32,000 nucleotides of DNA from Patescibacteria group bacterium (GTDB lineage: Bacteria > Patescibacteriota > Patescibacteriia > 2-01-FULL-39-33). The position numbers were made by a program, and so were the translations under genes. The stretch is taken from NCBI GenBank assembly GCA_041649575.1, contig JBAZMW010000005.1, positions 60,001 to 92,000 on the forward strand. The letters are read 5' to 3'. The notes below the pieces were generated by a model, which did no database searches, was not told the origin of the DNA, and was given only the letters and a program-made list of their open reading frames with translations. Positions 4,922-22,403 of this stretch are shown piece after piece; position 1 is the first letter of the stretch, and each line of letters begins with the position of its first letter.

Positions 4922-4948
4922 TCCATGATGCACTACAACACTAACAAC

Positions 4949-4996
4949 CAGCCTGTTTCCCGCGAGGGAGATGGGCTGTATTATTTTTTATTTTTT
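4949..4996 (+). terminator. intrinsic terminator after the PRTase-like gene
   Basis: CAGCC...TCCC-GCGA-GGGA...GGCTG nested hairpin, followed by TATTATTTTTTATTTTTT. It overlaps the 3' end of the convergent LOG-like gene. Confidence 0.6.
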
Positions 4997-5520
4997 GCTA
5001 GTTTGATGGCCAGTTTTACGGCCACCGCCGGATTTTTTGCGGTCTGAATCTTTAATCTTTTTCTGCGGTCAAAATATTTACCGGCCATTTCATCGGCCCA
5101 ACCGCCAGTTCCTTTGATGGCGACAATGGGAATATTGAGCTGATAGGCAATGGCCATTTCGGTCAGCGTGCCGGAACCGCCGGAGATGGCAACGATAGCA
5201 TCACAGCTGTTAACTAAGACAAATTCACGTCCACCGCCACGCTCCATCCCGCTGACAATTAATACATCGGTGTTGATGCCCTTGTCCCAGATTTCTTTGC
5301 CTTGTCCGTAAGTCACTCCGACGGTTAGGCCCTTGCCGGCTTTAGCGCCTCGAGCAGCGGCGGTGGAAAGTGAATCATAATCTTTTTCGGCGCCGTAAAC
5401 GGTGATATTACCAGACTCGGCTATCAGTTTGCCAGCCTGGTAGGCCAATTTTTCAAGCTCTGAGGAGTATTTGAGATCAGCTGCGGAACCCATGACTCCG
5501 ATTTGTAATTTTTTGCCCAT
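4981..5520 (-). CDS. LOG/TIGR00725-like Rossmann-fold protein (SLOG superfamily)
   Basis: 179 aa. ISGGSGTLTEM matches the PGGxGTxxE-type LOG motif. Gly-rich N-terminus GVMGSA. Confidence 0.6.
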   Translation of the reverse strand: MGKKLQIGVMGSAADLKYSSELEKLAYQAGKLIAESGNITVYGAEKDYDSLSTAAARGAKAGKGLTVGVTYGQGKEIWDKGINTDVLIVSGMERGGGREFVLVNSCDAIVAISGGSGTLTEMAIAYQLNIPIVAIKGTGGWADEMAGKYFDRRKRLKIQTAKNPAVAVKLAIKLAKNKK

Positions 5521-7193: not shown

Positions 7194-8582
7194 ATGTCAA
7201 ACAAAACCGTAAAGCCAGAAATTCTGGGTGGCTTCCGCGATATGCTACCCAGGGACGCATTGATGTTGCAGGAGATAGTCGACATTGTCAGAAGGGTGTA
7301 TGAATCCTTTGGCTTCTTGCCGCTGGAGACGCCCTGTATGGAACGGCAAGAGGTGCTGACGGGCGGCGATCCGCATTTCAACAAAACCATCTTCATTGCC
7401 CGCACTTTGCGCGGCACGGAAGACAGGGGCGTTGAGGAGAGCTGGGACAACGACTTCGCGCTGAGGTTTGATCTGACTGTGTCTCTGGCTCGGGTGGTGG
7501 CTGCCTATCCCGACTTGCTCAAGCCGTTCAAGCGCTACCAGTTGGGCAAGGTGTGGCGCGGCGAGAGCCAGCAGTCGGGGCGTTTTCGTGAGTTCTTTCA
7601 GTTGGACTTTGACACCATCGGTTCGCGTTCGCTCAACGCCGACATCGAGACCATCCAGGTGATTTACGAGTGCCTCAAGGAGCTCGGCATCGCCAACTTC
7701 ACTATTCGGTTCAACACCCGTAAGGTTCTCAACGGGTTGGCCCAGGTGGTGCAAGTGGGTGATCGGGCCAGGAATTTCTTCCGCATTCTCGACAAGCTGG
7801 ACAGGATCGGCGCCGACGGAGTGAAGGCCGATTTGATGCGTCAGCCGGACAACGAGTTCGACGAATCGGCCGTGGCCTTGAGTGAGTCGGAAGCGGACAA
7901 GGTTCTGGGTTTTTTGTCCATCAAGGATGAACGACCCGAGGACACCTTGGCACGGCTGGAGGAGTTTTTTGCCGGTGCTCAAGGCGATGGTCAGGAAGGT
8001 CTGGCCGAACTGCGGGGCATTGTCGAGGCGCTTGATCTCTTGGGCATTCCTCGCGCCAACTGGAAGCTGGATTTGTCGGTAGCCCGTGGCCTGGACTACT
8101 ACACCGGGCCGGTGTTTGAGACGATACTCAATGACTATCCGGAGCTCGGTTCGGTGGTCGGCGGCGGGCGTTTCGATGGCCTGACCAACCGTTTCATCCC
8201 GGACAGCAATATTGCGGGCGTGGGTGCCTCGGTCGGCGTGGACCGGCTGATCGTGGGTATGCAGAAACTCGGTCTGCTCAAGGCCAAGGACTCTCTGACT
8301 CAGGTGCTGGTCACCATCTTCGATCCCAAGTACGAGCGCGAGTCAAGGGCGATGGCGGCCTACTTGAGACGTTTCGGAGTACGAACCGAGCTCTACCTGG
8401 GCGAGGATCGCACACTGCGGGCGCAGTTCGCTTACGCCACCAAGAAGGGCATCCCGTTCGTCGTGGTTCTGGGCGAAGAGGAAATCGAGGCCGATAAGGT
8501 AGCCTTGAAGGATATGGCCAGTCGCAGCCAGGAGCTCTTGACAAGAGAGGAGGTTCTTGCTAAGCTGGCAAGAGCAGAATAA
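7194..8582 (+). CDS. hisS: histidine--tRNA ligase
   Basis: ATG at 7194 follows AAGGAAAGGA; the track start at 7155 is TTG inside a leader hairpin. Class II motifs: GFRDMLP, motif 2 RYQLGKVWRGESQQSGRFREFFQLDFD, motif 3 GGGRFDGL. C-terminal anticodon-binding domain (VLVTIF...IPFVVVLGEEE). Confidence 0.9.
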   Translation: MSNKTVKPEILGGFRDMLPRDALMLQEIVDIVRRVYESFGFLPLETPCMERQEVLTGGDPHFNKTIFIARTLRGTEDRGVEESWDNDFALRFDLTVSLARVVAAYPDLLKPFKRYQLGKVWRGESQQSGRFREFFQLDFDTIGSRSLNADIETIQVIYECLKELGIANFTIRFNTRKVLNGLAQVVQVGDRARNFFRILDKLDRIGADGVKADLMRQPDNEFDESAVALSESEADKVLGFLSIKDERPEDTLARLEEFFAGAQGDGQEGLAELRGIVEALDLLGIPRANWKLDLSVARGLDYYTGPVFETILNDYPELGSVVGGGRFDGLTNRFIPDSNIAGVGASVGVDRLIVGMQKLGLLKAKDSLTQVLVTIFDPKYERESRAMAAYLRRFGVRTELYLGEDRTLRAQFAYATKKGIPFVVVLGEEEIEADKVALKDMASRSQELLTREEVLAKLARAE

Positions 8583-8603: not shown

Positions 8604-8680
8604 GGGCATGTAGCTCAGTTGGCCAGAGCGCAGGGTTGTGGCCCCTGAGGTCGTGGGTTCGAGCCCCATCGTGCCCCCCA
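8604..8680 (+). tRNA. tRNA-His (anticodon GTG), CCA encoded, no encoded G-1
   Basis: Hand-folded cloverleaf. Acceptor GGGCATG/CGTGCCC. D stem GCTC/GAGC. Anticodon stem CAGGG/CCCTG with loop TTGTGGC. Variable loop AGGTC. T stem GTGGG/CCCAT with loop TTCGAGC. C73 followed by CCA. Confidence 0.85.
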
Positions 8681-8779: not shown

Positions 8780-10534
8780 TTATTTTTTTTCTTTGATTTC
8801 CATTTCTATCTCTTCGATAAACTGGGCCACTTTTTTGCTACCTAGGTCGCCCTCACCACGTTTTCTAATAGCCACGGCGGCGGCGGATTCTTCTTTCTCT
8901 CCAACCACTAAAATGTAAGGCACCTTTTCTTTCTCCGCGTTTCTGATTCTTTTGCCCAGACTCTCGTCGCTGTTGTCCAATTCGACGCGGACATTTTTTT
9001 TGAATAATTGGTCTCTAACTTTTTGGCCATAATTGTTGAATTTTTCGGAGACGGGGATAATAACTGCTTGCACCGGAGCCAGCCAGGTCGGGAAAGCTCC
9101 TGCATAGCGTTCGATCAAAAAGGCCATGGTGCGCTCCAGGCAGCCGATAGAAGAACGGTGGATGACGATGGGCCGCTCATTTTTCCCTTCTTTGTTGGTG
9201 AAAGTTAGGTCGAAGCGTTCCGGCATAACAAAGTCATATTGGACAGTAAAGGCAGTTTCTTCTTTGCCGCCGGTTCTTTTCATTTGGATATCGATTTTCG
9301 GGCCATAGAAAGCGGCTTCGTTGGCGGCCTCATAGAACGGAGCCTTAACTTCTATCAGAACCTCGCGCAAAACATTTTCGGCAAAATCCCAGGCATCGTC
9401 GTCTTTATAATATTTTTTGGTGTCCGAACGGTCGCCCAGAGACAGACGATAGCGATAGTCCACGCCCTTTTCCAGGCCCAGCGTCCCATTGATAAAATCA
9501 ATAAGGTCGAGAACTTCCTTGATGACTTGTTTGGCCTGGTCTTTGGCAGCGATGATGTGGGCGTCGGCCAAGCAAAACATGCGGACACGGGTCAGACCGG
9601 ACAATTCGCCGCTTTTCTCGTAGCGATATTGATGAGCGATTTCGCCGATGCGGTAAGGCAGCTCGCGGTAGCTGTGCTTTTCGGATTTATAAAACATGAA
9701 ATGATGCGGGCAGGTCATGGGCTTGAGGATCAATTCTTCCTCATCGATTTTCATCACCGGATACATGGTGTCTTTGTAGTAAGGATAGTGGCCGGATTTT
9801 TTGTAGAGATCGACTTTGGCCAAATCGGGAGTGACCACATGGTGATAACCGCGTTTTAATTCTTCGTCTATAGTAAAGCGCTCAAGCTCTCTTTTGATGG
9901 TGGCGCCTTTGGGGCCGAAAGTCGGCAGGCCTTTGCCAACAAGCTCGGAAAAGACGAAGAGCTTTAAATCTTGGCCGATAACTCGGTGGTCTCTTTTTTT
10001 GGCTTCTTCTTGCAGTTTTAAATATTCGTCCAATTCTTTTTGGGTGGCAAAAGCAGCGCCATAAATCCGCTGGAGCATTTTATTTTTCTCATTGCCTCGC
10101 CAATAAGCGCCAGCGACAGATAATAGCTTGAAAATCTTAACTTCGCCGGTGGACTTCAAATGGGGACCACGGCACATATTGGAGAAGTCGCCTTGCTCAT
10201 AGAAACCAACTTCTTTCTCATCCGCTTGTTTCAGTTCTTTAGCCAACTCCGCAGTGTAGGTGTATTTTTTGCTTTTTAGAAGTTTGATCGCCTCATCAAT
10301 CGGCAACAGCTTTTTTTCAATTTTTAAATCTTCTTTGACAATTTTTTTCATTTCAGCCTCGATGTCGGCCAGGTCGTCTTCGGTCACTTGATTTTGGGCT
10401 TCAAAATCATGATAAAAGCCGTTTTCAATGGCCGGGCCGACACCGGGAACGGCGCCATAAAGTCGTTCAAGCGCCTGCATCATGATGTGTGCCGCGCTGT
10501 GATTGAGGATTTCTTGCTGGTCTTGGTTATTCAT
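8780..10534 (-). CDS. thrS: threonine--tRNA ligase lacking the N-terminal TGS domain
   Basis: 584 aa. It starts directly at the editing-domain HxxxH region (NHSAAHIMMQA). Further matches: CRGPH, GAYWRG..NKMLQRIYG, class II catalytic core, anticodon-binding domain. Confidence 0.9.
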   Translation of the reverse strand: MNNQDQQEILNHSAAHIMMQALERLYGAVPGVGPAIENGFYHDFEAQNQVTEDDLADIEAEMKKIVKEDLKIEKKLLPIDEAIKLLKSKKYTYTAELAKELKQADEKEVGFYEQGDFSNMCRGPHLKSTGEVKIFKLLSVAGAYWRGNEKNKMLQRIYGAAFATQKELDEYLKLQEEAKKRDHRVIGQDLKLFVFSELVGKGLPTFGPKGATIKRELERFTIDEELKRGYHHVVTPDLAKVDLYKKSGHYPYYKDTMYPVMKIDEEELILKPMTCPHHFMFYKSEKHSYRELPYRIGEIAHQYRYEKSGELSGLTRVRMFCLADAHIIAAKDQAKQVIKEVLDLIDFINGTLGLEKGVDYRYRLSLGDRSDTKKYYKDDDAWDFAENVLREVLIEVKAPFYEAANEAAFYGPKIDIQMKRTGGKEETAFTVQYDFVMPERFDLTFTNKEGKNERPIVIHRSSIGCLERTMAFLIERYAGAFPTWLAPVQAVIIPVSEKFNNYGQKVRDQLFKKNVRVELDNSDESLGKRIRNAEKEKVPYILVVGEKEESAAAVAIRKRGEGDLGSKKVAQFIEEIEMEIKEKK

Positions 10535-10621
10535 ATATTTTGTATTAATTTTAGAGTTTTTTTATGAATTGGTCAAATATTATAATTGTCAGAAAAGAAA
10601 AGCCTTGTTAAGATAATTATT

Positions 10622-10722
10622 GCTCGTTACGGAGCGCACTCTGCACGCTTGAGTCGAGTATGGCAGCGTCTACTCTGGCAGCGCGCACCAAGGGATGGGG
10701 TTTTCGATGAGAGAATCCCATC
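10622..10722 (+). repeat. unit 0 of the hairpin-terminated ~100-nt repeat family, upstream of the island's first promoter
   Basis: GC-rich segment ending ...CACCAA|GGGATGGGGTTTTC-GATGA-GAGAATCCCATC (hairpin 10692-10722, 12-bp stem). It has the same CAA|GGG junction and GATGGG/CCCATC stem type as H20. Confidence 0.6.
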
Positions 10723-10770
10723 ATTATTTTTGTTTAAATTTAGATATTTAAAAATTTTTAATTTTTAGTA

Positions 10771-10799
10771 TTGACAAAAATATTAATATATGTTAGGAT
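10771..10799 (+). promoter_or_regulatory. sigma70-like promoter P1 of the island (drives the 226-aa gene)
   Basis: TTGACA (10771-10776), 17-nt spacer, TAGGAT (10794-10799), then ATGGGGTCA. It is near-parallel to P2 at 13747. Confidence 0.5.
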
Positions 10800-10928
10800 A
10801 TGGGGTCAATGACGCGTCGTCATCTGACGGGACAGGCAACTGTGTTGTCCTGGCCAAAGCGAGGGCGGTTTGAGTCATTGAGGCTTAAATCGCAAGTGAG
10901 TATTTCAACAAGGTAGGAGTAACTAGTC

Positions 10929-11609
10929 ATGGCGAAAGTCAAGCCGGAAGTCGAGCCGGAAGTCAAGTCGGGAGAATCGAAATCGAAGGTAGTGAGAGTG
11001 AAAGTGGAGGGGGTTTACCCAATCCTCATGAATCCCATGACCGAGGCCACGCTCGACAGCTTGATCACGGGCAATCGCCTGCCGCCGACCAAGGATTTGG
11101 CGTTCGAGGAGGTCGCGAGCAGGAAGATTTACCGTGAAGGCGGCGAGCCCGATGGCGCTATCGGTATTCCCGTGGAGAATCTGTGCTCCTGTCTGGTGCG
11201 GGCGGGACGCGAAGTCAAGAATGGCAAGAAGCAGATCAGCACGGCGGAAAGCACCACGCTGTTCTCATTTCTCTCCATTCGCGGCGAGTTCCTGCCGTTC
11301 ACCAACGATCTGACCCGGCACGGCGACGGCAAGGGTTGGGTTGTCGACAAACGTCGCGGTTGCCTGCACGACAAGGGCAAATCCACGGCGGTCGGCATCC
11401 TGCGGCCGAAATTCCCCGTCTGGGCATTCGAGTTCGTCATGGACCTCGACTTGACCGAGATCGACGAGGGCGTCGTGCGGAAGCTTGTCGAGGTCGCGGG
11501 CAAGAAAGTCGGCCTGGGCGATTTCCGGCCCACCTGCAAGGGGCCGTTCGGTCGGTTCCAGGTCGTGAGCTGGGAAGAGGCCAAGAAAGAAGTTCCGGCC
11601 GCGGCCTAG
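10929..11609 (+). CDS. hypothetical 226-aa protein with a C-terminal glycine-rich loop reminiscent of RAMP (Cas5/Cas6/Cas7-like) proteins
   Basis: RBS AGGTAGGAG lies 9 nt upstream of the ATG. K/E-rich N-terminal tail. IGIPVENLCSCLVRAGREV resembles the RAMP IPGSSLKGALR-type segment. VGLGDFRPTCKGPFGRFQVV lies ~25 aa from the C-terminus. The coding call is confident; the fold assignment is speculative. Confidence 0.75.
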   Translation: MAKVKPEVEPEVKSGESKSKVVRVKVEGVYPILMNPMTEATLDSLITGNRLPPTKDLAFEEVASRKIYREGGEPDGAIGIPVENLCSCLVRAGREVKNGKKQISTAESTTLFSFLSIRGEFLPFTNDLTRHGDGKGWVVDKRRGCLHDKGKSTAVGILRPKFPVWAFEFVMDLDLTEIDEGVVRKLVEVAGKKVGLGDFRPTCKGPFGRFQVVSWEEAKKEVPAAA

Positions 11610-11832
11610 CTCCGGTGTACATCATGTAACACGGCTACCCTGTCACGTGGGGTTTTCCAACCTCGTGCCAGGCACGCCGCACCATGGGGCGGGAGAGCAG
11701 CAATGTTCTCCCGCCAGCACTTATACATTATTATCAATGCGTGCCGATGCCACCAAAGGCACGGCTTGGTCCGGTGGCGTCCGCTGCTGCAATGAGCTGC
11801 ATGGGGTGGGAGTTCGCAAGAATTCCCGCCAA

Positions 11833-13553
11833 CTAATCAATGCGTGTTATAATGAAAATAATAAATATTGATTAGTACATTCTTCTGCGTGTGGTGTTGT
11901 TTCGCTCGGTTGCGTAGAGCGTCGCATCGCATGGTCGACCTCACCACGGGGCGAGGGTTCATCGCAATCCTCGCCGACTAATCAGTGATTATTACGGTTT
12001 AATAATTAGTGATCAGTTCTTTTTCACAGTCCTTGGTGCGGCTAAGCTCCGCTCCGCGCAGTCCGCTCTGCTGTTGTTTGCCAGGGGGCGGGAGAGCAGA
12101 GATGTTCTCCCGCCAGAGTGTATCACCCATTTTCCCAACTGGCCAAGGCGTGGCCCGGCGGTGTGGGCAATGGTTCGGCTCGGGGCGGGAGTCCATCGCG
12201 ACTCCCGCCAGCTAATCAATGGTTGTTAAAAAATTTAGTAATTATTGATTAGTTCGTTTATAAATCATGATGTGGCTGGCCGTCGCATGTCTTAGTTGCG
12301 TATCGTGTAGCCGCGCTTTCCCTGGGGCGAGGATTGAAATACATCCTCGCCAGCTAATCAATGTCCATTAATTAATTAGTGGTTATTGATTAGTACCTTT
12401 TCACTTTGACTCAGCTAGCCGCCGTAGCGCGGAGTAAGCTGCAGTGGGGCTCACCCCAGCTATGTTGAGCTCGCCATGGGGCGGGGATGGGAAACTGTCT
12501 CCGCCAAAACTACTATCACCGTGTCGTTGGGTCGGCTTCGGCTACCTTTGATCCGGCGAACCGGCGCAGAGCGTGGGGCGGGGATTGTAACAAATCCCCG
12601 CCAACTAATCAGTGTGTATTATGCAAATAGTAAATATCGATTAGCTCTTTCTGGTCCTAGCATTCTTGGCCGCCGTGGTGTGAGGCACTGCAAGACGGAG
12701 CGGAGCTGCGCACGGGGCGGGAGGTAGCAATACTCTCCCGCCAATATCTACCAAACACTTCTCAATGGCAGGGCTTTCCGGCGCGTAGTTCAGCCCCGCC
12801 AGGCGAAGCGTTCTGTTGCAAGGGGCGGGGGTTCAGTGATGTTCTCCCGCCGTACCTTTTGCTTTTTAGGCCGCCCAGAGCAGTCAGCGGTAGAGCCTGG
12901 TCCTCTGTGGCAGTCCATGGGCGGGAGTCCTCACCCGGCTCCCGCAACTATTTATTGGCGTTTGTTCCTCGGCGGAGCTACGCAGCCTGCCGCATAGTTC
13001 GGCCAGGTGTAGCGACGCACTCCCTGGGGCGGAGGTCGGTAGTCATGATCTCCGCCGACTAATCAGTGTTCATAATAATTTGTGATTAATGATTAGTTCA
13101 TTTGTTAGACGGTTATGCTCAGGCGCAGTTCCGCGGAGCAGAGTATAGCTCGGCAGACACCGGCGTACTTGTCCATGGGGCGGAGACGGGAAACTGTTTC
13201 CGCCGAGCGATCAACCAGCTTCGGCTGTCAGAAAAGGATAATCGGTATGACTGGTGGTATGGGCATGCACAAACATGGCACGAGCGGTCATGTGCATAAT
13301 GACCAGCATTTCACTGGCAAGAAGGGCGGCAAGCGTGCTGAGCGGAAAGGAAAGACGCACAAACAGCGTCGCCTGAACCGCGGGACGCACAAGAACAGGT
13401 TCAAGGAAGACTAGCTGACATTAGGCCATGGTGCCGCGGAGCAAACATCTCTCCGGCATTGCGGGCTGTGGCGCGGGGCGGAAATCGGCAACGGTTTCCG
13501 CCATTAATCAATGTTTATTAAGAATTTAGTAATTATTGATTAGTTTTAGTTCT
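11833..13553. repeat. seven AT-rich palindromic modules (CTAATCARTG-N20-30-ATTGATTAG), each 1-2 nt after a GC hairpin
   Basis: M1 11833-11875, M2 11978-12016 (degenerate right arm TAGTGATCAG), M3 12212-12252, M4 12354-12393, M5 12605-12644, M6 13059-13096, M7 13504-13553. The loops contain TATAAT-like hexamers. Each module is followed by a T-rich stretch on the plus strand. Confidence 0.7.
13247..13414 (+). CDS. candidate 55-aa highly basic His/Lys/Arg-rich small protein inside the array
   Basis: ATG at 13247 is preceded by AAAGGA. Product: MTGGMGMHKHGTSGHVHNDQHFTGKKGGKRAERKGKTHKQRRLNRGTHKNRFKED*. It fills the single ~270-nt gap in the otherwise ~100-nt periodic array. No homology check was possible. 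Confidence 0.3.
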   Translation: MTGGMGMHKHGTSGHVHNDQHFTGKKGGKRAERKGKTHKQRRLNRGTHKNRFKED

Positions 13554-13746
13554 TTCGGCAAAGCTGAGTAAAGCTGCCTGTTGTCCGCCGACGCACGGGG
13601 CGGGAGTTCGCAAGAATTCCCGCCAAGCACATCTCATCTTTGGCGGCATCGTTGGGCGCAGTATGGCTCGGCATGCTTTGCCAGAGTGCGGCGCGGAACG
13701 GAGATCGGTAACGGTCTCCGTTATTATATTTTTAATAAATTTATTG

Positions 13747-13775
13747 TTGACAATTTTAATATTTTTTGTTAATAT
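13747..13775 (+). promoter_or_regulatory. sigma70-like promoter P2 of the island (drives the helicase)
   Basis: TTGACA (13747-13752), 17-nt spacer, TAATAT (13770-13775), then ATGGTGTCA. Confidence 0.5.
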
Positions 13776-13883
13776 ATGGTGTCAGGCCAAAATCAATAAC
13801 AAGCAGTTCTTTGACACTTTGGCCTGTGAGAATATAGGAAATTGAAGAAGCGAAGTAAAACCAGGCGAGAAGGAAGACAAATC

Positions 13884-15671
13884 ATGAAACATCCGAAACA
13901 TCTGGACCTTTGGAGTTGTTTCCCGCATGACTGTTATCCAAATATCTTGGATAATCAGAGGGACGCTCTCCGGGTCATCGAGCAGGAAGGCGGTTGCGCT
14001 CTATTGCAACTGCCGACCGGCTCAGGCAAGACAGCAGTGGGGTACGCTTTTCTCAAGGCCGTCTTGAAGAGGGCTGAGGGGCCGGTGTACTATGTCGTTC
14101 CCACCAAGACGCTGGTGGAGCAGGTCAGAAGGCTCCACCCCGACGTCAAGATCATATTTGGTCGAAACGAATACTCATGTCTGTTCTACCCCGATCAGGA
14201 GCTGAAGGCCGACGAAGTGCCTTGCTCGATGCTGCACGATTGCCCGCATCGCGTGGACCAGGAAACTGGCCAGACCGCTGTGCCCGGCGTCAAGCCCTGT
14301 CCTTATTTGCAGAAGAAGTGGGAGGCGAGCCAAGGCGGTATCGTGGTTTGCACTACGGCGTTCTTTCTCTTCACCCACTTGTTCGCCAGCGAAGACGCCA
14401 AGCCGGCAGCGCTGGTGATCGACGAAGCCCATGGCATTGCTCATACGGTTCGCGGTTGTCTCTCCTACGAGATTACCGACTACCATCTTGGGCGGGCGGT
14501 GGAGCTACTACGGCCAGTGGACAACGAACAGGCCGAGCGACTTGACGCTTTCTTGCGGACGATGGTTCGTATCATCAAGAAGAAGGCGTCTGGCGAGCGG
14601 CAGATCATCGAGGATGAGGAGGTCGCCAAGCTGCTGGATAAGCTCAAGCAGATCAACATCACGCGACTGGGAGAAAAGGTGCGCCAGGCGATTAGGCAGG
14701 GAGTAATCGACGCCAAAGCGGAACGCGAAACCCTGCGTCGGCTGGAGATTGTCTTACGCGACTTGTCGCATTATGCCCGATCGCTCGAATACTCCCGGCC
14801 TAACGAGAAGCGTAACGCCCTCAACTACACCTATGCGTTTTGGAGCCAGGAGCGCGCCGAAGGCGAGCGGGTGAAGTACCGTCTGTTCATCAAGTGCTAC
14901 TATGTGGCGCCGCTCATACGGCGGATGTTGCCGGAGATGACTGTGGCTTACTCGGCGACCATCGGCGATCCCGAAGTGTTCGGTTTCGAGACTGGCATTG
15001 AGGCGCCGTTTCACAGCTTCGGTTCGGACTTCCCGGTTGGCAAAACGCAGATTTTTGTGCCGACCGATACGCCGAATTTGGCCGTCAACGTTCGTGGTCG
15101 TCAGGATCGCACCAGGGCGCTAAGGAGGATCGCCAAGGCCTGCCGCCGTTTTGCCGATCAAGGCAGGCGGTCGCTGGTGGTGGTGATCTCCAACGAGGAA
15201 CGCGCTAAGTTCCTGACGCTCGCCGGCGAGGAAGGCGTCGCAGCCGTCAGCTACGGTAATGGCGTCAAGCCAAAAGACGCGGCCCTGAAGTTCAAGGAGG
15301 GTGAGGGTGATGTCTTGGTTGGCACAGCGGCCAATTACGGAGAGGGCTTTGACTTACCCAAGGGCATCGCTCCGGTCATCTTCTTTCTCCGGCCAGGATT
15401 TCCGCATCCGCACGATCCGGCGACAGTGTTTGAGGAGAGGCGATTCGGCGGCATGCGTTGGCGGATCTGGAATTGGCGTGTGATGATGGAGGCCTTGCAG
15501 GTGCGGGGTCGCAACATCAGAAGCGCCGAGGATGTGGGCGTCTGCTTCTTCATTTCCCAGCAGTTCCGGCGGTTCGTTTTCGCCGCCCTGCCCGACTGGT
15601 TGCAGCCGGCGTATTGTGGCGATAAGGACTGGGAGGAGTGCCTTGAAGAGGCGGAGCGATTGCTTTCCTAG
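13884..15671 (+). CDS. XPD/DinG/Rad3-family superfamily 2 DNA helicase with a 4-Cys (Fe-S) insertion
   Basis: ATG at 13884 follows GAGAAGGAAG; the track start at 13842 is TTG. Motif I LPTGSGKT. Four Cys between motifs I and II (YSCLF, VPCSM, HDCPH, KPCPY). Motif II VIDEAHGI (DEAH). Also SATIG, motif V GTAANYGEGFDLP and motif VI QVRGRNIRSAEDVG. Confidence 0.85.
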   Translation: MKHPKHLDLWSCFPHDCYPNILDNQRDALRVIEQEGGCALLQLPTGSGKTAVGYAFLKAVLKRAEGPVYYVVPTKTLVEQVRRLHPDVKIIFGRNEYSCLFYPDQELKADEVPCSMLHDCPHRVDQETGQTAVPGVKPCPYLQKKWEASQGGIVVCTTAFFLFTHLFASEDAKPAALVIDEAHGIAHTVRGCLSYEITDYHLGRAVELLRPVDNEQAERLDAFLRTMVRIIKKKASGERQIIEDEEVAKLLDKLKQINITRLGEKVRQAIRQGVIDAKAERETLRRLEIVLRDLSHYARSLEYSRPNEKRNALNYTYAFWSQERAEGERVKYRLFIKCYYVAPLIRRMLPEMTVAYSATIGDPEVFGFETGIEAPFHSFGSDFPVGKTQIFVPTDTPNLAVNVRGRQDRTRALRRIAKACRRFADQGRRSLVVVISNEERAKFLTLAGEEGVAAVSYGNGVKPKDAALKFKEGEGDVLVGTAANYGEGFDLPKGIAPVIFFLRPGFPHPHDPATVFEERRFGGMRWRIWNWRVMMEALQVRGRNIRSAEDVGVCFFISQQFRRFVFAALPDWLQPAYCGDKDWEECLEEAERLLS

Positions 15672-16208
15672 TATCACGGACTGGCTCGCCATGGCTGCGC
15701 CTTGCTTGCCACTGCCTGCCGTCGTCCGCCAAGGGGCGGAGATCTGGTCCATCCGGGTCTCCGCCACATTCTTTGTTTTCAAACGTCGCTCGGCAACGTT
15801 GGGTCTTCAATGGCTTACCGCTGTTGCGCGTCGCAAGGGGCGAGGATGGTCTTTGACTAATTCTCGCCATTCTACACTTGTCAAAGAGATTCTTTGGCAG
15901 ATGTGGTCTTTATGAGGTAGCGTATTCTTCAGTTGAGCTCAGTCTAGCTCGGTACAGCTGAGCGCCGCAGCCATTTCCAAGGGGCGGGGGTTGGGCTTGC
16001 CCAAATCTCCGCCAACGCTTATCTTCTCGGCAATGCTTGGCACAGTATCCCAGTGTTGTGCGTCGCTGAGTTAGCCAAGGGATGGGACTGGTCAAACGGT
16101 CTCATCAAGATTATTTTTCTGGGCACGTCTCAGTATTCAATGGCCCGCTGCTGTTGAGTAGTGCAGAGCCCCCAGTCCAAGGGGCGGGAATCCATCGTGG
16201 TTCCCGTC
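15672..16208 (+). repeat. array block B: 5 further hairpin-terminated units downstream of the helicase
   Basis: H17 15733-15765, H18 15837-15868, H19 15981-16013, H20 16079-16106, H21 16181-16208. All are preceded by CAA|GGG. Confidence 0.75.
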
Positions 16209-16230
16209 GATTTTTTTTATTTAAAATTAA

Positions 16231-16259
16231 TTGCTAAATTCTAGGTTTTAAGCTAAAAT
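16231..16259 (+). promoter_or_regulatory. candidate argS promoter
   Basis: TTGCTA (16231-16236), 17-nt spacer, TAAAAT (16254-16259). Confidence 0.4.
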
Positions 16260-16273
16260 ATTCGTAAATCCCC

Positions 16274-17980
16274 ATGTCTTACACCATAGAAAAAATCAAA
16301 AAGCAAATTATCGAACAGGTCTCTGGCGCCGTAGGCCAGAAAATCGATAAAAGCCAGCTGGAAGTGACGGTGCCGCCGGACGCCTCTTTAGGCGATTTGG
16401 CCGTGCCCTGTTTTTATCTGACCAAACTGCTGCGGCGTTCGCCCAACCAGATTGCCGACGAGCTGCAGGCCAGAATCCGTCCGACAGGACTGATCAAGTC
16501 GGTGCAAAATGTCGGGCCTTATTTGAATTTTTTTGTCAGTAGCGGAGTTTTTGGCAAGGAGGTTTTAAAAGAAATAGCCAGATTAAAAGATAAATACGGC
16601 CGCGGCAAATTAGGCGAAGAAAAAGTAATGATTGAGTTTTCCCAGCCCAATACCCACAAAGAATTTCATATCGGCCACGTGCGTAATGCGGTTTTGGGTG
16701 ATAGTTTGGTGAAGCTTAATAAGTTCGCCGGACGCAAAGTGGTGGCGGTCAATTATATTGGCGATATCGGCGCTCATGTGGCCAAGTGTTTGTGGGCGCT
16801 TAAAAAATTTCACCAGCAGGAAGAACCGCCAAAGAATAAAGGCAAATTTTTAGGTCAGATTTATACCGAAGCGGTGAGAAAAATAGAAAGCAATCCCCAG
16901 TTCAAGCGAGAGGCCGATGAGGTTTTGCAAAAATTGGAGCGAGGCGACAAAAAGATGCTGGCTTTGTGGCAGAAAACCAGGAAGTGGAGTTTGGTGGAGT
17001 TTGAGGCGATTTACAAAACGCTGGGCATCAAGTTTGATCAAATTTTTTATGAGAGCGAGGTGGAGCAGCCGGGCAAAAAGATCGTTGAGAAGCTGCTAAA
17101 AGACGGCTTGGCCGAAAAATCGGAAGGTGCCGTAATTATCAATTTGGAAAAATACAATTTAAAAAATTTTTTACTGCTCAAATCCGACGGCTCATCGCTT
17201 TATTCCACCAAAGACCTGGCCTTGGCCGAGCTCAAATTCAAAAAATTCAAAATTGACAAAAGCGTGGTGGTAGTCGACAGCCGACAAACTTTTTATTTGC
17301 AGCAACTATTCAAAACCCTGGAAGTCATCGGCTTCAAAAAAAAGATGGAACATATCGCTTACGAGTTCGTCACCTTAAAGGATGGCGCCATGTCTTCGAG
17401 AGCGGGCAACGTGGTGTTGTTTGAAGATTTTTTTGAAGAAATGAAAGCTCTGGCCAAAAACGAAACCAAGAAAAGGCACGAGAATTGGCCGGCCAAAAAA
17501 ATCAGCCAAGTGGCCCGACAGCTGACTTTATCGGCTGTTAAATTCAATATGCTGAAAATCAGCAACAGCAGCATCATTGTTTTTGACAAAAATGAAGCTT
17601 TGAGTTTTGAGGGCTTTACCGGCCCTTACCTGCAATACACTTTAAGCCGCATTGCCAGTTTGCTAAAAAAGAGCCAGACCGTTGTCGCCGCCAACATTGA
17701 TTACAGTAAATTAAACAGTGACTTGGAAAAAGAAATTATTTTGAAGCTGGCGGAGCTGCCGGAGGTTATTAAGCGGGCGACAGCAACCAGCGAACCCAGC
17801 GAACTGGCCAAGTATTTATTTGATTTGTCCAGGCTGTTTTCTAATTTTTATCAGAGTTTGTCGATTTTGACCGCCGAAGAAAAAACCAAAAAAGCGCGAT
17901 TGACGCTAGTGGTGGCGGTCAGGCAGGTTTTGGTTAACGGTTTGAATCTGTTGGGCCTGGAAGCACTGGAGCAAATGTAG
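16274..17980 (+). CDS. argS: arginine--tRNA ligase
   Basis: 568 aa. HIGH-type motif NTHKEFHIGHVRN, MSSR (KMSKS-equivalent) GAMSSRAGN, and a C-terminal DALR-type anticodon-binding region ending ...EQM. Confidence 0.9.
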   Translation: MSYTIEKIKKQIIEQVSGAVGQKIDKSQLEVTVPPDASLGDLAVPCFYLTKLLRRSPNQIADELQARIRPTGLIKSVQNVGPYLNFFVSSGVFGKEVLKEIARLKDKYGRGKLGEEKVMIEFSQPNTHKEFHIGHVRNAVLGDSLVKLNKFAGRKVVAVNYIGDIGAHVAKCLWALKKFHQQEEPPKNKGKFLGQIYTEAVRKIESNPQFKREADEVLQKLERGDKKMLALWQKTRKWSLVEFEAIYKTLGIKFDQIFYESEVEQPGKKIVEKLLKDGLAEKSEGAVIINLEKYNLKNFLLLKSDGSSLYSTKDLALAELKFKKFKIDKSVVVVDSRQTFYLQQLFKTLEVIGFKKKMEHIAYEFVTLKDGAMSSRAGNVVLFEDFFEEMKALAKNETKKRHENWPAKKISQVARQLTLSAVKFNMLKISNSSIIVFDKNEALSFEGFTGPYLQYTLSRIASLLKKSQTVVAANIDYSKLNSDLEKEIILKLAELPEVIKRATATSEPSELAKYLFDLSRLFSNFYQSLSILTAEEKTKKARLTLVVAVRQVLVNGLNLLGLEALEQM

Positions 17981-18752: not shown

Positions 18753-18781
18753 TTGACTAAAACAGCAGAAATTGTTAAGAT
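18753..18781 (+). promoter_or_regulatory. candidate ileS promoter
   Basis: TTGACT (18753-18758), 17-nt spacer, TAAGAT (18776-18781). This is why the TTG start at 18753 in the track is unlikely to be the real start. Confidence 0.45.
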
Positions 18782-18806
18782 AAGAGCAATTTTTAAATTA
18801 AAAATT

Positions 18807-21800
18807 ATGAACAATATAATTGCTGACAAAGAAAAAGAAATTCAAAAATTTTGGCAAGATAATCAAATTTTTGAAAAGTCATTGGCGCAAACCAAAAACG
18901 GCCAGCGTTACAGTTTTTATGATGGCCCGCCGTTTGCCACCGGCACCCCGCATTACGGGCACCTAGTGGCCAGTCTTATGAAAGACGTGGTGCCGCGGTT
19001 TTGGACGATGCGCGGGCATTATGTGGAGCGGCGTTGGGGCTGGGATTGCCACGGACTGCCGATAGAAAACATGGTGGAGAAAGAGCTGGGTTTTAAGAAT
19101 AAAAAAGACATTGTCGAATATGGCATTGCCAACTTCAACGAGTACTGCCGCAGCAAAGTTTTGACGTATGTGGCGGAATGGAAAAAAACCATCAAACGAT
19201 TCGGCCGCTGGGCAGACATGGAAAACCCCTACAAGACCATGGACGTGGATTATATGGAAAGTATTTGGTGGGTTTTCAGACAGTTGTGGGACAAAGGCTT
19301 AATTTATGAGGGCTACCGCTCAATGCATATTTGTCCCAGGTGCGAAACGACTCTAAGTCAGTCGGAAGTGAGTGAGGGCTATCGCGACGTTGAAGATCTT
19401 TCCGTCACTTGGAAATTCAAAGTGCTCCCACCCCCCCATTCCCCCCCTCGGGCAGAGGGGGAAGATATTCCCACCTATTTATTGGCCTGGACAACAGTGC
19501 CTTGGAGCACCCTGAGCACCATGGGCCTGGCCATTGGCGCTGATTTTGATTATGTCAAAGCTAAAGTAAAAAACGAACACCTTATTTTTATCAAAGATAA
19601 ACTGGAAGAAGTAATGGCCGGTGTTAGCAATTATGAAATTATTGAAGAGTTTAAGGGCAGCAAGATGATTGGCTGGGAATATGAGCCGGTCAGCGATATT
19701 TTCAAAAATTTGCCGGAAGTGAAAAATAAAAAAAATGCCTATCATGTTTTTGCCGCCGATTATGTGGAAGCGACCGAGGGCACGGGCATCGTGACGATTA
19801 ACGGCTCATATGGCGAGGTGGATTTGCTCTCCGCCCAGCAAAATGATTTGCCGGTACTGATGGATGTGAAGCTGGATGGCAGGTTTGCCGATTTTGCCGG
19901 TGCTTATGCCGGCCTGGATGTCAAAGACGCCCAGGTCAAGTTTGTGGCTGATATGGAAAAGAAGGGTTTGGTTTGGAGCAGTGAGAAATACACCCATTCC
20001 TATCCCCATTGCTGGCGCTGTGATACCCCGCTTTTAAATTATTCGACTTCCTCCTGGTTTGTCAAAGTGACAAAAATCAAAAACCAGGCGCTGGCTTTGG
20101 CCAAACAGATCAATTGGTCGCCAGCGCATATCAAGGAAGGCCGTTTTGGCAAGTGGCTCGAAGGCGCACGCGACTGGTCGATTAGTCGTCAGCGGTTTTG
20201 GGCGAGCGTGATTCCGATTTGGAAATGCGTTTGTGGCGAGATGAAGGTCTTGGGTTCGGTCGACGAGTTATATAAAAGCTCTAGCGATAACCCCCCGCAG
20301 ATTACTAAGGTTATTTTTGTCAGGCACGGTGAAGCCGAAAACAATATTAGCCATATTAATTCCAACTCCTTGGATAAATATCCATTAACCAAAAAGGGCG
20401 CTGGACAAGTAAGTGAATCGGCGGCAAAAATAAAAGAAATTTTGGCAGAATCTTCGACAAAAGCCGTAATTTTCAGTTCTCCTGTCTTAAGAACTAAAGA
20501 AAGCGCGGAAATAATTTCTCATTATTTGGGATTGAAATATGAATTATCCGACGAAATTAAAGAGGTTGATTTTGGTATCGTGGAAGGAAAACAACTGGAT
20601 GAATTAATGGATGAATATAATCCTTTGCCGGCGGATAAAAAGTGGAATTTTAAAAATGGTCAAACCGGAGAATCTCAAAAAGATATACAAGAACGGATGT
20701 ATAAATGGTTCAAAAAAGTTTTAGAGGAAAATAAAAACAAAATAATAATCATAATTTCTCATGGCGACCCCCTTATGGCGTTGATAAATAAGATTAAAGG
20801 CAAGACAATAGAGGAACATGTTTTATCTTTAGAGAGCGATTCATATATTCAAAAAGGAGAAGTCAGAGTTGCTTATGTTATGAATGAAACTAAATTGGAA
20901 ATAGATTTACATAAGCACAGCATCGATAGGGTGGTTTTAAAATGCGAGAAGTGCGGAAACGAGATGAGTCGTATTCCCGATGTTTTGGACACCTGGTTTG
21001 ATAGCGGCTCTATGCCTTATGCGCAGCAGCACTATCCGTTTGCCAATAAGGAAAAATTTGAAGCCGGCTTTCCGGCGCAGTTCATTGCCGAAGGCGTGGA
21101 TCAGTGTCGCGCTTGGTTTTACTATCTGCACGTCAACGCCGCCGCCATTACAAACAAAATCGCCTACGAAAACGTCATTGCCAACGGTATTGTACTCGCC
21201 CAGGACGGTCGCAAAATGAGTAAAAAATTACAAAACTATCCGGAGCCAGAAGCGTTGATGGAAAAGTATGGCGCCGATGCCCTGCGTTTTTATTTATTAT
21301 CCGCGCCGGTGATGGCGGCCGAGAATTTGAATTTCTCCGAAGCCGGAGTAAAAGAAGCGATGCAGAAAGTGGTGATGCTTTTAAATAACATTTTGAATTT
21401 TTATAAGTTGTATGCTGATGTCATCCCGACTGAAGCTGTGGGTCGAGTGGAAGGATCCCTTAGAAAAGAAAGGGATTCCTCCGTTACTTCGCCAGCTGGC
21501 GACTCCGGTCGGAATGACAATGTGCTGGATCAGTGGCTCTTGGCCAAATTAAATTTATTAATTAAAGAGGTGGCTGGAGCGATGGAGGCGTATGACCTGC
21601 CGCGGGCGGTGCGTCCGATCGCCGGATTTATAGATGAATTTTCCACTTGGTGGCTAAGGCGTTCGCGTGACAGATTTAAGGGGGCAGACGAAAAAGATAA
21701 ACAGCAAGCCCTGGCTGTTTTTGGGCATACGCTTTTAGAATTATCAAAAGTGATGGCGCCGTTTACTCCGTTTATCGCCGAGCAGGTTTATAAGGAAGTG

Positions 21801-22403
21801 GGCCCGTCCAGCCAGGGTGGCCGGGCAAGCGGTGAGCAGGAATCAGTGCATTTAGAAAAATGGCCTGAAGAATCAGAAATATTAATTAAGGAAGAGGTTA
21901 TTAAACAAATGGAACAGGTGAGAAAAATCGTAGAATTAGGCTTGGCCAAACGGGCCGAAGCGGGAATTAAGATTCGGCAGCCGCTCGGAAACTTTCAATT
22001 TTCAATTTTCAATTTTCAAAATAACGCCGACCAGTATTTAAAAATTATCGCCGACGAACTTAATGTAAAAAAAGTTGTTTATAACAAAAATCTCGGCCAA
22101 GAAATAGAGTTAGACACGGAGATTACCAAGGAGCTGAAGCTGGAGGGCGTGGCGCGAGAATTGGTTCGCACTATTAATAATTTGCGCAGAGAGGCCGGGC
22201 TGACAATTCAAGATCAGATTAAAATTGACTGGCAATCGGAGGGCGAAACAATCAGGCAGGTTTTTGCGGTTGAAAGTTTAGTCGAGGAGTTGAAAAGGGC
22301 AACGATTACCAAGGAATTTTTAGACAAGGACAACCAGGGCCAAGTGGCGGAAATCAATGGTGAAAAAATTAAGCTGGAAATAAACAGGACCATACCTTCT
22401 TAA
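18807..22403 (+). CDS. ileS: isoleucine--tRNA ligase carrying an internal histidine-phosphatase domain and short GC-rich in-frame inserts
   Basis: ATG at 18807 (MNNIIADKEKEIQKFW). HIGH motif PHYGH, WTTVPW editing domain, KMSKK. Cys motifs: C-P-R-C (ICPRCE), C-W-R-C (PHCWRCD), WKCVCG and LKCEKCG. Confidence 0.9.
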   Translation: MNNIIADKEKEIQKFWQDNQIFEKSLAQTKNGQRYSFYDGPPFATGTPHYGHLVASLMKDVVPRFWTMRGHYVERRWGWDCHGLPIENMVEKELGFKNKKDIVEYGIANFNEYCRSKVLTYVAEWKKTIKRFGRWADMENPYKTMDVDYMESIWWVFRQLWDKGLIYEGYRSMHICPRCETTLSQSEVSEGYRDVEDLSVTWKFKVLPPPHSPPRAEGEDIPTYLLAWTTVPWSTLSTMGLAIGADFDYVKAKVKNEHLIFIKDKLEEVMAGVSNYEIIEEFKGSKMIGWEYEPVSDIFKNLPEVKNKKNAYHVFAADYVEATEGTGIVTINGSYGEVDLLSAQQNDLPVLMDVKLDGRFADFAGAYAGLDVKDAQVKFVADMEKKGLVWSSEKYTHSYPHCWRCDTPLLNYSTSSWFVKVTKIKNQALALAKQINWSPAHIKEGRFGKWLEGARDWSISRQRFWASVIPIWKCVCGEMKVLGSVDELYKSSSDNPPQITKVIFVRHGEAENNISHINSNSLDKYPLTKKGAGQVSESAAKIKEILAESSTKAVIFSSPVLRTKESAEIISHYLGLKYELSDEIKEVDFGIVEGKQLDELMDEYNPLPADKKWNFKNGQTGESQKDIQERMYKWFKKVLEENKNKIIIIISHGDPLMALINKIKGKTIEEHVLSLESDSYIQKGEVRVAYVMNETKLEIDLHKHSIDRVVLKCEKCGNEMSRIPDVLDTWFDSGSMPYAQQHYPFANKEKFEAGFPAQFIAEGVDQCRAWFYYLHVNAAAITNKIAYENVIANGIVLAQDGRKMSKKLQNYPEPEALMEKYGADALRFYLLSAPVMAAENLNFSEAGVKEAMQKVVMLLNNILNFYKLYADVIPTEAVGRVEGSLRKERDSSVTSPAGDSGRNDNVLDQWLLAKLNLLIKEVAGAMEAYDLPRAVRPIAGFIDEFSTWWLRRSRDRFKGADEKDKQQALAVFGHTLLELSKVMAPFTPFIAEQVYKEVGPSSQGGRASGEQESVHLEKWPEESEILIKEEVIKQMEQVRKIVELGLAKRAEAGIKIRQPLGNFQFSIFNFQNNADQYLKIIADELNVKKVVYNKNLGQEIELDTEITKELKLEGVARELVRTINNLRREAGLTIQDQIKIDWQSEGETIRQVFAVESLVEELKRATITKEFLDKDNQGQVAEINGEKIKLEINRTIPS
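20284..20900 (+). other. histidine phosphatase (PGAM-like) domain inserted in-frame within IleRS
   Basis: VIFVRHGEAENN (RHG catalytic motif), VDFGIVEGK and IIIISHGDPLMAL (second His). The domain is flanked by the IleRS segments IPIWKCVCGEMKVLGSVDELY and DLHKHSIDRVVLKCEKCGNEMSRIPDVLDTWFDSGSMPYAQ, which are normally ~20-30 aa apart. Confidence 0.75.
21420..21518. repeat. 99-nt imperfect palindromic element inserted in-frame in ileS (MITE/RPE-like)
   Basis: Terminal arms GTCATCCCGACTGAAG / CTCCGGTCGGAATGAC and a central stem ATCCCTT-AGAAAAGA-AAGGGAT. 99 nt equals 33 codons (VIPTEAVGRVEGSLRKERDSSVTSPAGDSGRND). It is GC-richer than the flanks. Confidence 0.55.

Follow-up and report, generated by a model that had tools for sequence, protein, structure and literature searches.

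The question of what 22 similar stem-loops do on one strand of a single GC-rich island is raised by a 32,000-nt stretch of a Patescibacteria genome (contig JBAZMW010000005.1, positions 60,001 to 92,000; the whole stretch is referred to below as the window, with position 1 its first letter). A preliminary description of this DNA, made from the letters alone, had read the hairpins as parts of a plus-strand RNA that is under selection for structure rather than for sequence. The present analysis supports that reading and adds what it missed, namely, a tract of pentamers ahead of each hairpin and the flanking genes for a Vipr-type RAMP protein and a helicase. Taken together, the locus is very probably a Viral Interference Programmable Repeat (VIPR) system with 22 guide RNAs, or vrRNAs, and the hairpins are the 3′ tails of those guides.

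All 22 stem-loops of the preliminary description were located on the plus strand, from H0 (10694-10722) through H21 (16183-16208). When the stems were walked inward from the base, they measured 8 to 13 bp and enclosed loops of 4 to 12 nt, which replaces the earlier figures of 7 to 12 bp and 8 to 15 nt. The loops had also been called unconserved; they are not featureless, as 8 of 22 are GNRA tetraloops (gcaa four times, gaaa twice, gaga and gtaa once each) and 3 others are catcgY. The observation that mismatches are almost all G-T was borne out. Of the 236 stem positions, 203 are Watson-Crick pairs, 30 G·T, and 3 G·A, with A·C absent; the outer eight pairs, whose count is independent of how far each stem is extended, hold 14 G·U and 0 A·C.

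To quantify the claim that paired bases change together, covariation was counted on fixed-length pieces anchored at the stem base and covering the outer 10 pairs; MAFFT run on the raw hairpins misaligned the 3′ arms. Standard pairing was present in 97.3% of the cells, compared with 81.9% after the letters of the 3′ side were shuffled, and changes on both sides were found in 9 of the 10 pairs (44 cells). None of 500 shuffles equaled the hairpin family on any of five covariation measures, and sliding the 3′ partner column by 1 to 3 positions lowered pairing to 38 to 61%. RNAalifold, one of the checks that the preliminary description had proposed, recovered the same helix from an independent MAFFT alignment, with compensatory change in 9 of 10 pairs. 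Because the hairpins all belong to one locus and are paralogous, counting cells inflates the tally of independent events; even so, no fewer than nine separate compensatory events are required. Another proposed check, a comparison of RNA folding energy between the strands, gave means of −18.6 kcal/mol for the plus strand and −13.6 kcal/mol for the minus strand, and the plus strand folded more stably for 19 of the 22 hairpins (Wilcoxon p = 1.3e-4). A plus-strand RNA that is selected for structure and not for sequence is supported by the covariation, by the preponderance of G·T over A·C (30:0), by the GNRA loops, and by the difference in folding energy.

The family is confined to the island. A covariance model built from it returned exactly 22 plus-strand sites in the 32 kb (E = 2e-9 to 1e-3) and no further sites besides much weaker minus-strand images of the same palindromes; the model was used in place of a generic hairpin finder, which at loose settings was too noisy for an estimate of enrichment. 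The immediate flanks are nearly invariant, as had been noted for a 5′ GG and a 3′ purine that is mostly A: G occupies position −1 in 22/22 hairpins and position −2 in 21/22, C occupies position −5 in 22/22, and the base just 3′ of the stem is always a purine (22/22; A in 17, G in 5). Six of the 22 hairpins (H0, H11, H16, H17, H20, and H21) carry a T-run and a terminator-like flag, and 16 lack a T-run. Spacing within the arrays is irregular, at 97 to ~300 nt from start to start, with gaps of 67 to 272 nt between hairpins.

When the 70 nt upstream of each hairpin were written as 5-mers ending at the hairpin, every hairpin proved to be preceded, in exact register, by a 5-nt-periodic tract with the consensus Y-N-N-N-G, in which positions 2 to 4 are variable. 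In the 22 units, counted from −55 to −6, the first position of the pentamer is C or T in 196/220 cases (89%) and the fifth is G in 147/220 (67%). The periodicity is highly significant (chi2 = 309.8, p = 4e-59), and the maximum reached by 2,000 sets of random anchors, placed in the window or in the open reading frames (ORFs) of the island, was 38.7. The last pentamer before the hairpin reads C-A-N-G-G and is the only unit that is a full YNNGG. In total, 21 of the 22 tracts comprise ~9 to 14 pentamers, H14 having only ~5, and the tracts of H11 and H21 each contain a 1-nt register shift. Each RNA thus has the layout of a short leader, then ~9 to 14 pentamers, and then the hairpin. A simple tract detector found 17 plus-strand tracts, every one of them within the island, and nothing in the rest of the 32 kb.

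The protein encoded beside these units connects them to a known system. The 226-aa product of the first gene (identical to MFA5029932.1 from a Patescibacteria metagenome-assembled genome) has no match in Pfam, NCBIfam, or PADLOC and matches a phage family of unknown function, phrog_4652 (E = 4.7e-15). Searched as a single sequence against the PDB, it retrieved chain 36pp_D, named "SUSP1 Vipr protein," at the weak score of E = 0.0085; a profile of 35 homologues retrieved the same chain at E = 1.5e-10, aligned over positions 8 to 193 of 204. An AlphaFold2 model (pLDDT 87.7, pTM 0.82) was compared with the PDB by Foldseek, and all of the top 50 matches were Cas7-type RAMPs (Csm3, Cmr4, type VII Cas7, and the Cas7 domains of gRAMP). 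The G-loop, GLGDFRP..GPFGRF, is invariant or nearly so among the homologues. Judged by these profile and model comparisons, the protein is a remote homologue of SUSP1 Vipr, and the gene is called vipr here.

VIPR systems are described in two 2026 preprints (bioRxiv 10.64898/2026.04.26.720920 and 10.64898/2026.04.26.720927). They are RNA-guided DNA-binding systems related to CRISPR. A VIPR locus consists of a Vipr RAMP (RRM core, G-loop, and thumb), a vap gene, and vrRNAs of ~100 nt, each made of at least 4 and typically 9 to 16 YNNGG repeats followed by a structured 3′ tail, with NNNGG, YNNNG, and NNNNG as repeat variants (10.64898/2026.04.26.720920). One Vipr protomer binds each repeat, so that GGY is held and the NN bases are displayed, and the resulting filament binds double-stranded DNA with two bases read and the third skipped (10.64898/2026.04.26.720920, 10.64898/2026.04.26.720927). 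In SUSP1, the 3′ structure, a pseudoknot, caps the filament, and protomers resolve in the 3′-to-5′ direction (10.64898/2026.04.26.720927). Seven types are distinguished, of which III to V carry nucleases or helicases, and types III and V are called the sole nuclease-bearing types (10.64898/2026.04.26.720920). The SUSP1 system has been characterized by experiment and cryo-electron microscopy, and experimental work has dealt mainly with type II from phages.

The elements of that description recur at the Patescibacteria locus: a Vipr homologue, pentamer repeats, a structured 3′ tail, and a minimal gene set of vipr and one accessory gene, with no cas genes and no CRISPR array. It is this combination that identifies the hairpins as the probable 3′ tails of 22 vrRNAs. 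The island (10586 to 16215) has a GC content of ~58%, against ~43% for the host genome, and lies between the chromosomal genes thrS and argS; the remainder of the window holds housekeeping genes. Its contents are vipr, a helicase gene, an ORF of 55 aa, and the 22 same-strand RNA genes, and its two substantial ORFs are both on the plus strand. One vrRNA gene stands alone upstream, 16 lie between vipr and the helicase gene, and 5 follow the helicase gene. Three σ70-like promoters front the solitary H0 unit, vipr with array 1 (H1 to H16), and the helicase gene with array 2 (H17 to H21), respectively. T-runs are present after the final hairpin of each proposed transcription unit (H0, H16, and H21) and after three other hairpins. 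The features of the island are as follows.

10586-10614 (+): σ70-like promoter, TTGTCA-17-TAAGAT, TG-extended, before the solitary H0 vrRNA; a consensus match with predicted function
10639-10722 (+): vrRNA unit 0, with 11 pentamers and H0 (10694-10722), then ATTATTTTTG (terminator-like)
10771-10799 (+): σ70-like promoter, TTGACA-17-TAGGAT, before vipr and array 1
10929-11609 (+): vipr, 226-aa Cas7-like RAMP with a C-terminal G-loop (GLGDFRPTCKGPFGRF)
11638-11715 (+): vrRNA unit 1, H1 (11688-11715, GCAA loop)
11735-11830 (+): vrRNA unit 2, H2 (11805-11830, GCAA loop)
11832-13546 (+): span of seven AT-rich palindromes, (C)TAATCArTG-N(20-26)-ATyGATTAG
11885-11975 (+): vrRNA unit 3, with 13 pentamers, H3 (11950-11975)
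12032-12114 (+): vrRNA unit 4, H4 (12087-12114, GAGA loop)
12139-12209 (+): vrRNA unit 5, H5 (12184-12209)
12266-12351 (+): vrRNA unit 6, H6 (12326-12351)
12410-12505 (+): vrRNA unit 7, H7 (12480-12505, GAAA loop)
12517-12602 (+): vrRNA unit 8, H8 (12577-12602)
12656-12742 (+): vrRNA unit 9, H9 (12716-12742)
12764-12851 (+): vrRNA unit 10, H10 (12824-12851)
12866-12946 (+): vrRNA unit 11, with a 1-nt register shift, H11 (12920-12946, basal G·A mismatch)
12968-13056 (+): vrRNA unit 12, H12 (13028-13056)
13119-13204 (+): vrRNA unit 13, H13 (13179-13204, GAAA loop)
13247-13414 (+): small ORF, 55 aa, very basic, inside array 1
13432-13457 (+): decayed hairpin copy
13452-13502 (+): vrRNA unit 14, with ~5 pentamers, H14 (13477-13502, GCAA loop)
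13554-13624 (+): vrRNA unit 15, H15 (13599-13624, GCAA loop)
13642-13722 (+): vrRNA unit 16, H16 (13697-13722, GTAA loop, AACGGAG stem), then ATTATATTTT; end of array 1
13747-13775 (+): σ70-like promoter, TTGACA-17-TAATAT, before the helicase gene and array 2
13884-15671 (+): XPD/Rad3/DinG-family accessory helicase, 595 aa from the ATG at 13884
15675-15765 (+): vrRNA unit 17, H17 (15735-15765)
15784-15868 (+): vrRNA unit 18, H18 (15839-15868)
15908-16013 (+): vrRNA unit 19, H19 (15983-16013)
16026-16106 (+): vrRNA unit 20, H20 (16081-16106, GATGGGA stem)
16120-16208 (+): vrRNA unit 21, with a 1-nt register shift, H21 (16183-16208), then GATTTTTTTT; end of array 2 and of the island

Under the premise that this system works as that of SUSP1 does, each vrRNA would be assembled with one Vipr protomer per pentamer, the constant G and Y being held and the variable bases displayed. 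The folded tail would cap the filament at its 3′ end, DNA would be recognized noncontiguously, and the helicase would then act on the bound target. A tail of this kind must fold and need not keep its sequence, which accounts for substitutions that compensate one another, for the G·U pairs tolerated in the stems, and for the GNRA loops. Most tails in the island lack a T-run, and the arrays are probably transcribed as precursors that are cut or trimmed back to the hairpins.

One genome per species was scanned, and 60 loci with vipr relatives were found. The 28 closest, whose Vipr proteins are 35 to 54% identical, are nearly all from Patescibacteria. In 23 of the 28, the same helicase adjoins vipr, and the YNNNG arrays reach up to 37 tracts; the remaining five are on short contigs, on contigs cut near vipr, or without a helicase match. 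The helicase is absent from the more distant bacterial loci and from all 80 viral contigs with vipr relatives (≤40% identity). The consensus pentamer throughout the clade is Y-N-N-N-G, and a hairpin follows every tract in the related loci (218 units), with stems that are specific to the locus (AGCGGGAGTCA, GGCAGAG, GGTAAGTGG, GACAGG, and GTCAGY). The 48 nt at the end of the tract fold with a mean of −15.2 kcal/mol in these 218 units, whereas random 48-mers drawn from the same loci average −8.7 kcal/mol (p = 2e-39); in 78% of the units, the tract strand has the more stable fold (p = 8e-21). Because the stems differ between loci while the fold persists, structure and not sequence is what is conserved, and this evidence is independent of the window. 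The ratio of G·U to A·C in the related loci, 278:25, is biased by a finder that scores G·U as a pair and is not used as evidence.

The related loci also bear on how the RNA's 3′ end is made. Each vrRNA of the closest relative, L001, is served by a promoter of its own (TTGACA-17-TATATT), and its hairpin is followed by ATTTTTAT. Terminator-like hairpins number 12 in L001 and 15 in a second relative, L009, and nearly every hairpin in these two loci has a T-run. The pairing of a hairpin and U-tract with a separate promoter for each unit suggests that the tail in such AT-rich relatives also provides the RNA with its 3′ end by intrinsic termination. At positions 8677 to 8704 of L001 and at similar places, the tail hairpin itself (AGCGGGAGTCATTAACTTGACTCCCGCT) contains a −35-like hexamer, TTGACT, and a second one, TTGACA, comes after the T-run, so that the terminator of one vrRNA overlaps the promoter of the next.

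The accessory gene encodes a helicase with the Pfam domains Helicase_C_2, DEAD, ResIII, and DEAD_2, and the ATG start adopted here is the one used by NCBI. Its best PADLOC match is typeIV_DinG (E = 1.9e-38), and its match to the NCBIfam model cas_csf4 reaches E = 2e-4 and 19 bits, against a cutoff of 400 bits. The family profile retrieves XPD, FANCJ, CHL1, and DinG from the PDB and no chain named as CRISPR associated. Four cysteines are conserved in the helicase. The 55-aa ORF within array 1 (MTGGMGMHKHGTSGH...KQRRLNRGTHKNRFKED) is very basic, is preceded by a ribosome-binding site, and has no match in Pfam, NCBIfam, PADLOC, or the other libraries searched. A homologue occupies the same relative position in L001 (9809 to 9978; tblastn 62% identity, E = 5e-8), and the ORF may represent a third protein component of the VIPR clade. 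After the ORF and before the short tract of H14, positions 13432 to 13457 hold a decayed, bulged copy of the hairpin (GCCGCGGAG..CTCCGGC), which stems from the repeat family and escaped the covariance model; its condition suggests that one unit was broken up as the small ORF emerged or came in by insertion.

Candidate DNA targets were sought with the published rule, in which bases 2 and 3 of each pentamer are read and one is skipped (NNx), applied to the ten tail-proximal pentamers with the constant hairpin-adjacent one left out, which gives 20 specified bases. Seven vrRNAs were scanned against a viral collection and one against a metagenome collection. The H3 vrRNA has exact 20/20 matches in only one phage across both collections, a phage of 58% GC represented by three contigs (L141, L142, and L144). 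The site, GTTTTATCCTGTAGGGTAATCATACGGTC, lies at 4126 to 4154 of L141 and at 3096 to 3124 of L142 and L144; it spans the stop of the terminase gene and the start of an amidase (endolysin-like) gene, with the skipped bases falling on wobble positions of the amidase. The match does not extend to the two 5′ pentamers of H3, and shuffles of pentamer order score similarly at the local level. No other vrRNA matches the 11.7-kb phage contig, which leaves the H3 site an unproven candidate target. H20 matches a 30%-GC contig resembling a giant virus, probably by chance. Other rules (NNN contiguous, NNNx, NNNxx, and NNxxx) yielded nothing above shuffled controls in 3.2 Mb.

Several observations weigh against the VIPR assignment or against its details. 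The similarity to SUSP1 Vipr is remote, and five of the seven vrRNA patterns scanned have no exact match in the viral collection. The tail is a plain hairpin of variable sequence, whereas that of SUSP1 is described as an invariable, pseudoknot-containing extension. Conservation of the published GGY does not extend to its second G here, and the published rule of skipping one nucleotide may therefore not transfer to this clade. Candidates for cutting the arrays are also missing: the window contains no Cas6-like nuclease gene, and a search of positions 10000 to 17000 against Rfam (evalue mode) returned 0 matches, so that no hammerhead, other ribozyme, or RNA family of a known kind separates one unit from the next. 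Some chance, if a small one, should be given to a different arrangement of the same parts, in which the hairpin is a true repeat element (processing signal, 3′ handle, and terminator), the YNNNG pentamer is decoded by another rule, such as three bases per pentamer, and the clade, which combines hairpin-punctuated arrays with a Cas7-like protein and a DinG/XPD helicase, is an extant link from VIPR to type IV-like CRISPR systems and not simply one more VIPR type.

It is unlikely that the hairpins serve only as Rho-independent terminators, or as 3′-end stabilizers of small transcripts, and play no part in a ribonucleoprotein. Selection on a terminator would also act on RNA-strand structure and yield the same covariation and G·U bias, and terminator-like flags are present on 6/22 hairpins here, as are T-runs after nearly every hairpin in L001 and L009. 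However, 16/22 hairpins have no T-run, the exact register of pentamers behind C-A-N-G-G is not needed for termination alone, and in the sole VIPR system studied, according to the available text, the 3′ structure is part of the complex (10.64898/2026.04.26.720927). Termination explains part of the pattern and complements the role as a vrRNA tail without replacing it. A degenerate or minimal type IV CRISPR-Cas system, with the hairpins as repeats and the intervening sequence as spacers, is less likely still. The best PADLOC match of the helicase (typeIV_DinG), the Cas7-like fold of Vipr, and the clustered, palindromic, same-strand hairpins of 26 to 31 nt would suit such a system. In the CRISPR RNAs of types I-E and I-F, the hairpin likewise stands at the 3′ end of the unit. 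Yet the irregular spacing of the hairpins (97 to ~300 nt from start to start) does not make a CRISPR array, the repeats diverge by compensatory change rather than being near-identical, and the supposed spacers have a 5-nt period that CRISPR spacers do not have. Cas1, Cas2, Cas6, Csf1, and Csf3 are absent from the window, the neighbors are housekeeping genes, the cas_csf4 score is far below its cutoff, and the helicase profile retrieves XPD, FANCJ, and DinG and no CRISPR-named chain. The least probable of these explanations is that the hairpins are DNA-level palindromes (REP/BIME, MITE, integron attC, or operators) maintained by template switching or by the binding of a symmetric protein. Palindromes are indeed concentrated in the intergenic DNA, where a second family of seven AT-rich ones lies among the hairpins. 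Nevertheless, all 22 hairpins share one orientation and have no copy outside the island; 30 G·T against 0 A·C and the energy gap between the strands are unexpected for a symmetric DNA site; and GNRA tetraloops are a feature of RNA. The window has no RAYT transposase or integrase gene, and gaps between hairpins of 67 to 128 nt are too short for gene cassettes.

The second family of palindromes is confined to array 1 and occurs in none of the other loci examined. Its seven members (11834-11876, 11979-12017, 12213-12252, 12355-12393, 12606-12644, 13060-13096, and 13505-13543) sit directly after H2, H3, H5, H6, H8, H12, and H14 and have a potential stem of 15 to 24 bp. As promoters they were rejected: they give no plus-strand σ70-like match, and no convincing −35/−10 pair was found by hand. 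Processing by an RNase III-type enzyme, weak termination, and protein binding are possible roles for them, or they may be a small element that was inserted.

Elsewhere in the window, further patches of 56 to 61% GC occur at 4001 to 5000 and 7501 to 8500, one covering a pair of ORFs of 383 and 393 aa without a Pfam match and the other the 3′ half of hisS; the compositional mosaic reaches beyond the VIPR island. No clear defense island was seen around the VIPR island in the window. A Polbeta-type nucleotidyltransferase with an adjacent small ORF, which may be an MNT/HEPN-like toxin-antitoxin pair, and a SLOG (LDcluster4) protein lie ~5 to 9 kb upstream (1973-2913 and 4981-5520). Downstream, at 18753 to 22403 on the plus strand, is a 1,216-aa class I aminoacyl-tRNA synthetase (Pfam tRNA-synt_1, Anticodon_1, and DUF5915) with a complete His_Phos_1 domain (E = 1.9e-28) inserted at residues 520 to 688, an unusual fusion.

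With 22 guides in three proposed transcription units, the locus offers an extensive and clean instance of the helicase-associated form of VIPR, which has been little studied. The kind of system, including helicase-linked types and YNNNG repeats, is already known from the 2026 preprints, and to specialists familiar with them the locus will be a useful and unsurprising instance of a very recent discovery. For the helicase type, the available preprint text does not describe the tail hairpins, their covariation, or their double use as terminators, nor does it describe array processing without ribozymes or terminators, the XPD-like family of the helicase, or the 55-aa basic ORF. The 22 paralogous tails, with more than 200 from relatives, amount to a natural mutagenesis series in which the constraint on the tail is that of an RNA helix rather than of a particular sequence, and the series bears on Vipr filament capping and on 3′-end formation. 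The locus is likewise a test case for array processing without ribozymes or terminators, for the decoding of YNNNG, and for the action of an XPD-like helicase at a Vipr-bound target. Annotators can recognize such loci by a Y-N-N-N-G tract followed by a hairpin, adjoining a 200-aa protein with GLGDFRP..GPFGRF; libraries now label them "hypothetical protein" and "Rad3-related helicase."

Among known systems, Rho-independent terminators share with the hairpins a GC-rich stem-loop on the RNA strand and, in the relatives and at the array ends here, a T-run. They differ in that most copies here have no T-run and all are locked in the register of a pentamer tract. Type IV-A CRISPR-Cas (Csf2/Cas7 with Csf4/CasDinG) resembles the locus in combining a Cas7-like RNA-binding protein with a DinG-family helicase, in lacking a nuclease, and in having small RNAs with a hairpin at one end. 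Interference by type IV-A is reported to proceed through the helicase and transcriptional repression. In contrast to type IV-A, the locus has no true CRISPR array and no Cas6/Csf5, Csf1, or Csf3, and its guide consists of a tract of periodic repeats; the helicase resembles XPD and has four conserved cysteines, and orthology with CasDinG is unsupported (cas_csf4, 19 bits versus 400).

The closest correspondence is with VIPR itself. Type II, as described for the Escherichia phage SUSP1 and a Pseudomonas fulva prophage, has a homologous Vipr RAMP, pentanucleotide repeats (here ~9 to 14) followed by a structured 3′ tail, and a minimal layout with no CRISPR array, in which one vrRNA lies upstream of the genes and arrays lie downstream. 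The Patescibacteria locus departs from type II in its repeats, which are Y-N-N-N-G, with a full YNNGG only next to the hairpin; in its tail, a simple hairpin of 8 to 13 bp that is often closed by a GNRA loop and in which no pseudoknot was seen; and in its accessory gene, an XPD/DinG helicase in place of the DNA-binding Vap1. It also has 22 vrRNAs, compared with 4 in SUSP1, and is chromosomal in Patescibacteria rather than carried by a phage. Predicted nucleases or helicases are reported for types III to V, and YNNNG repeats for some vrRNAs (10.64898/2026.04.26.720920). The locus probably belongs to the helicase-bearing VIPR type. One of the five seed proteins of the preprint has a UniProt accession in a format that we take to be that of genome records from the candidate phyla radiation. 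With types III and V named there as the only ones that bear nucleases, the helicase-bearing type, and with it this locus, would by elimination probably be type IV.

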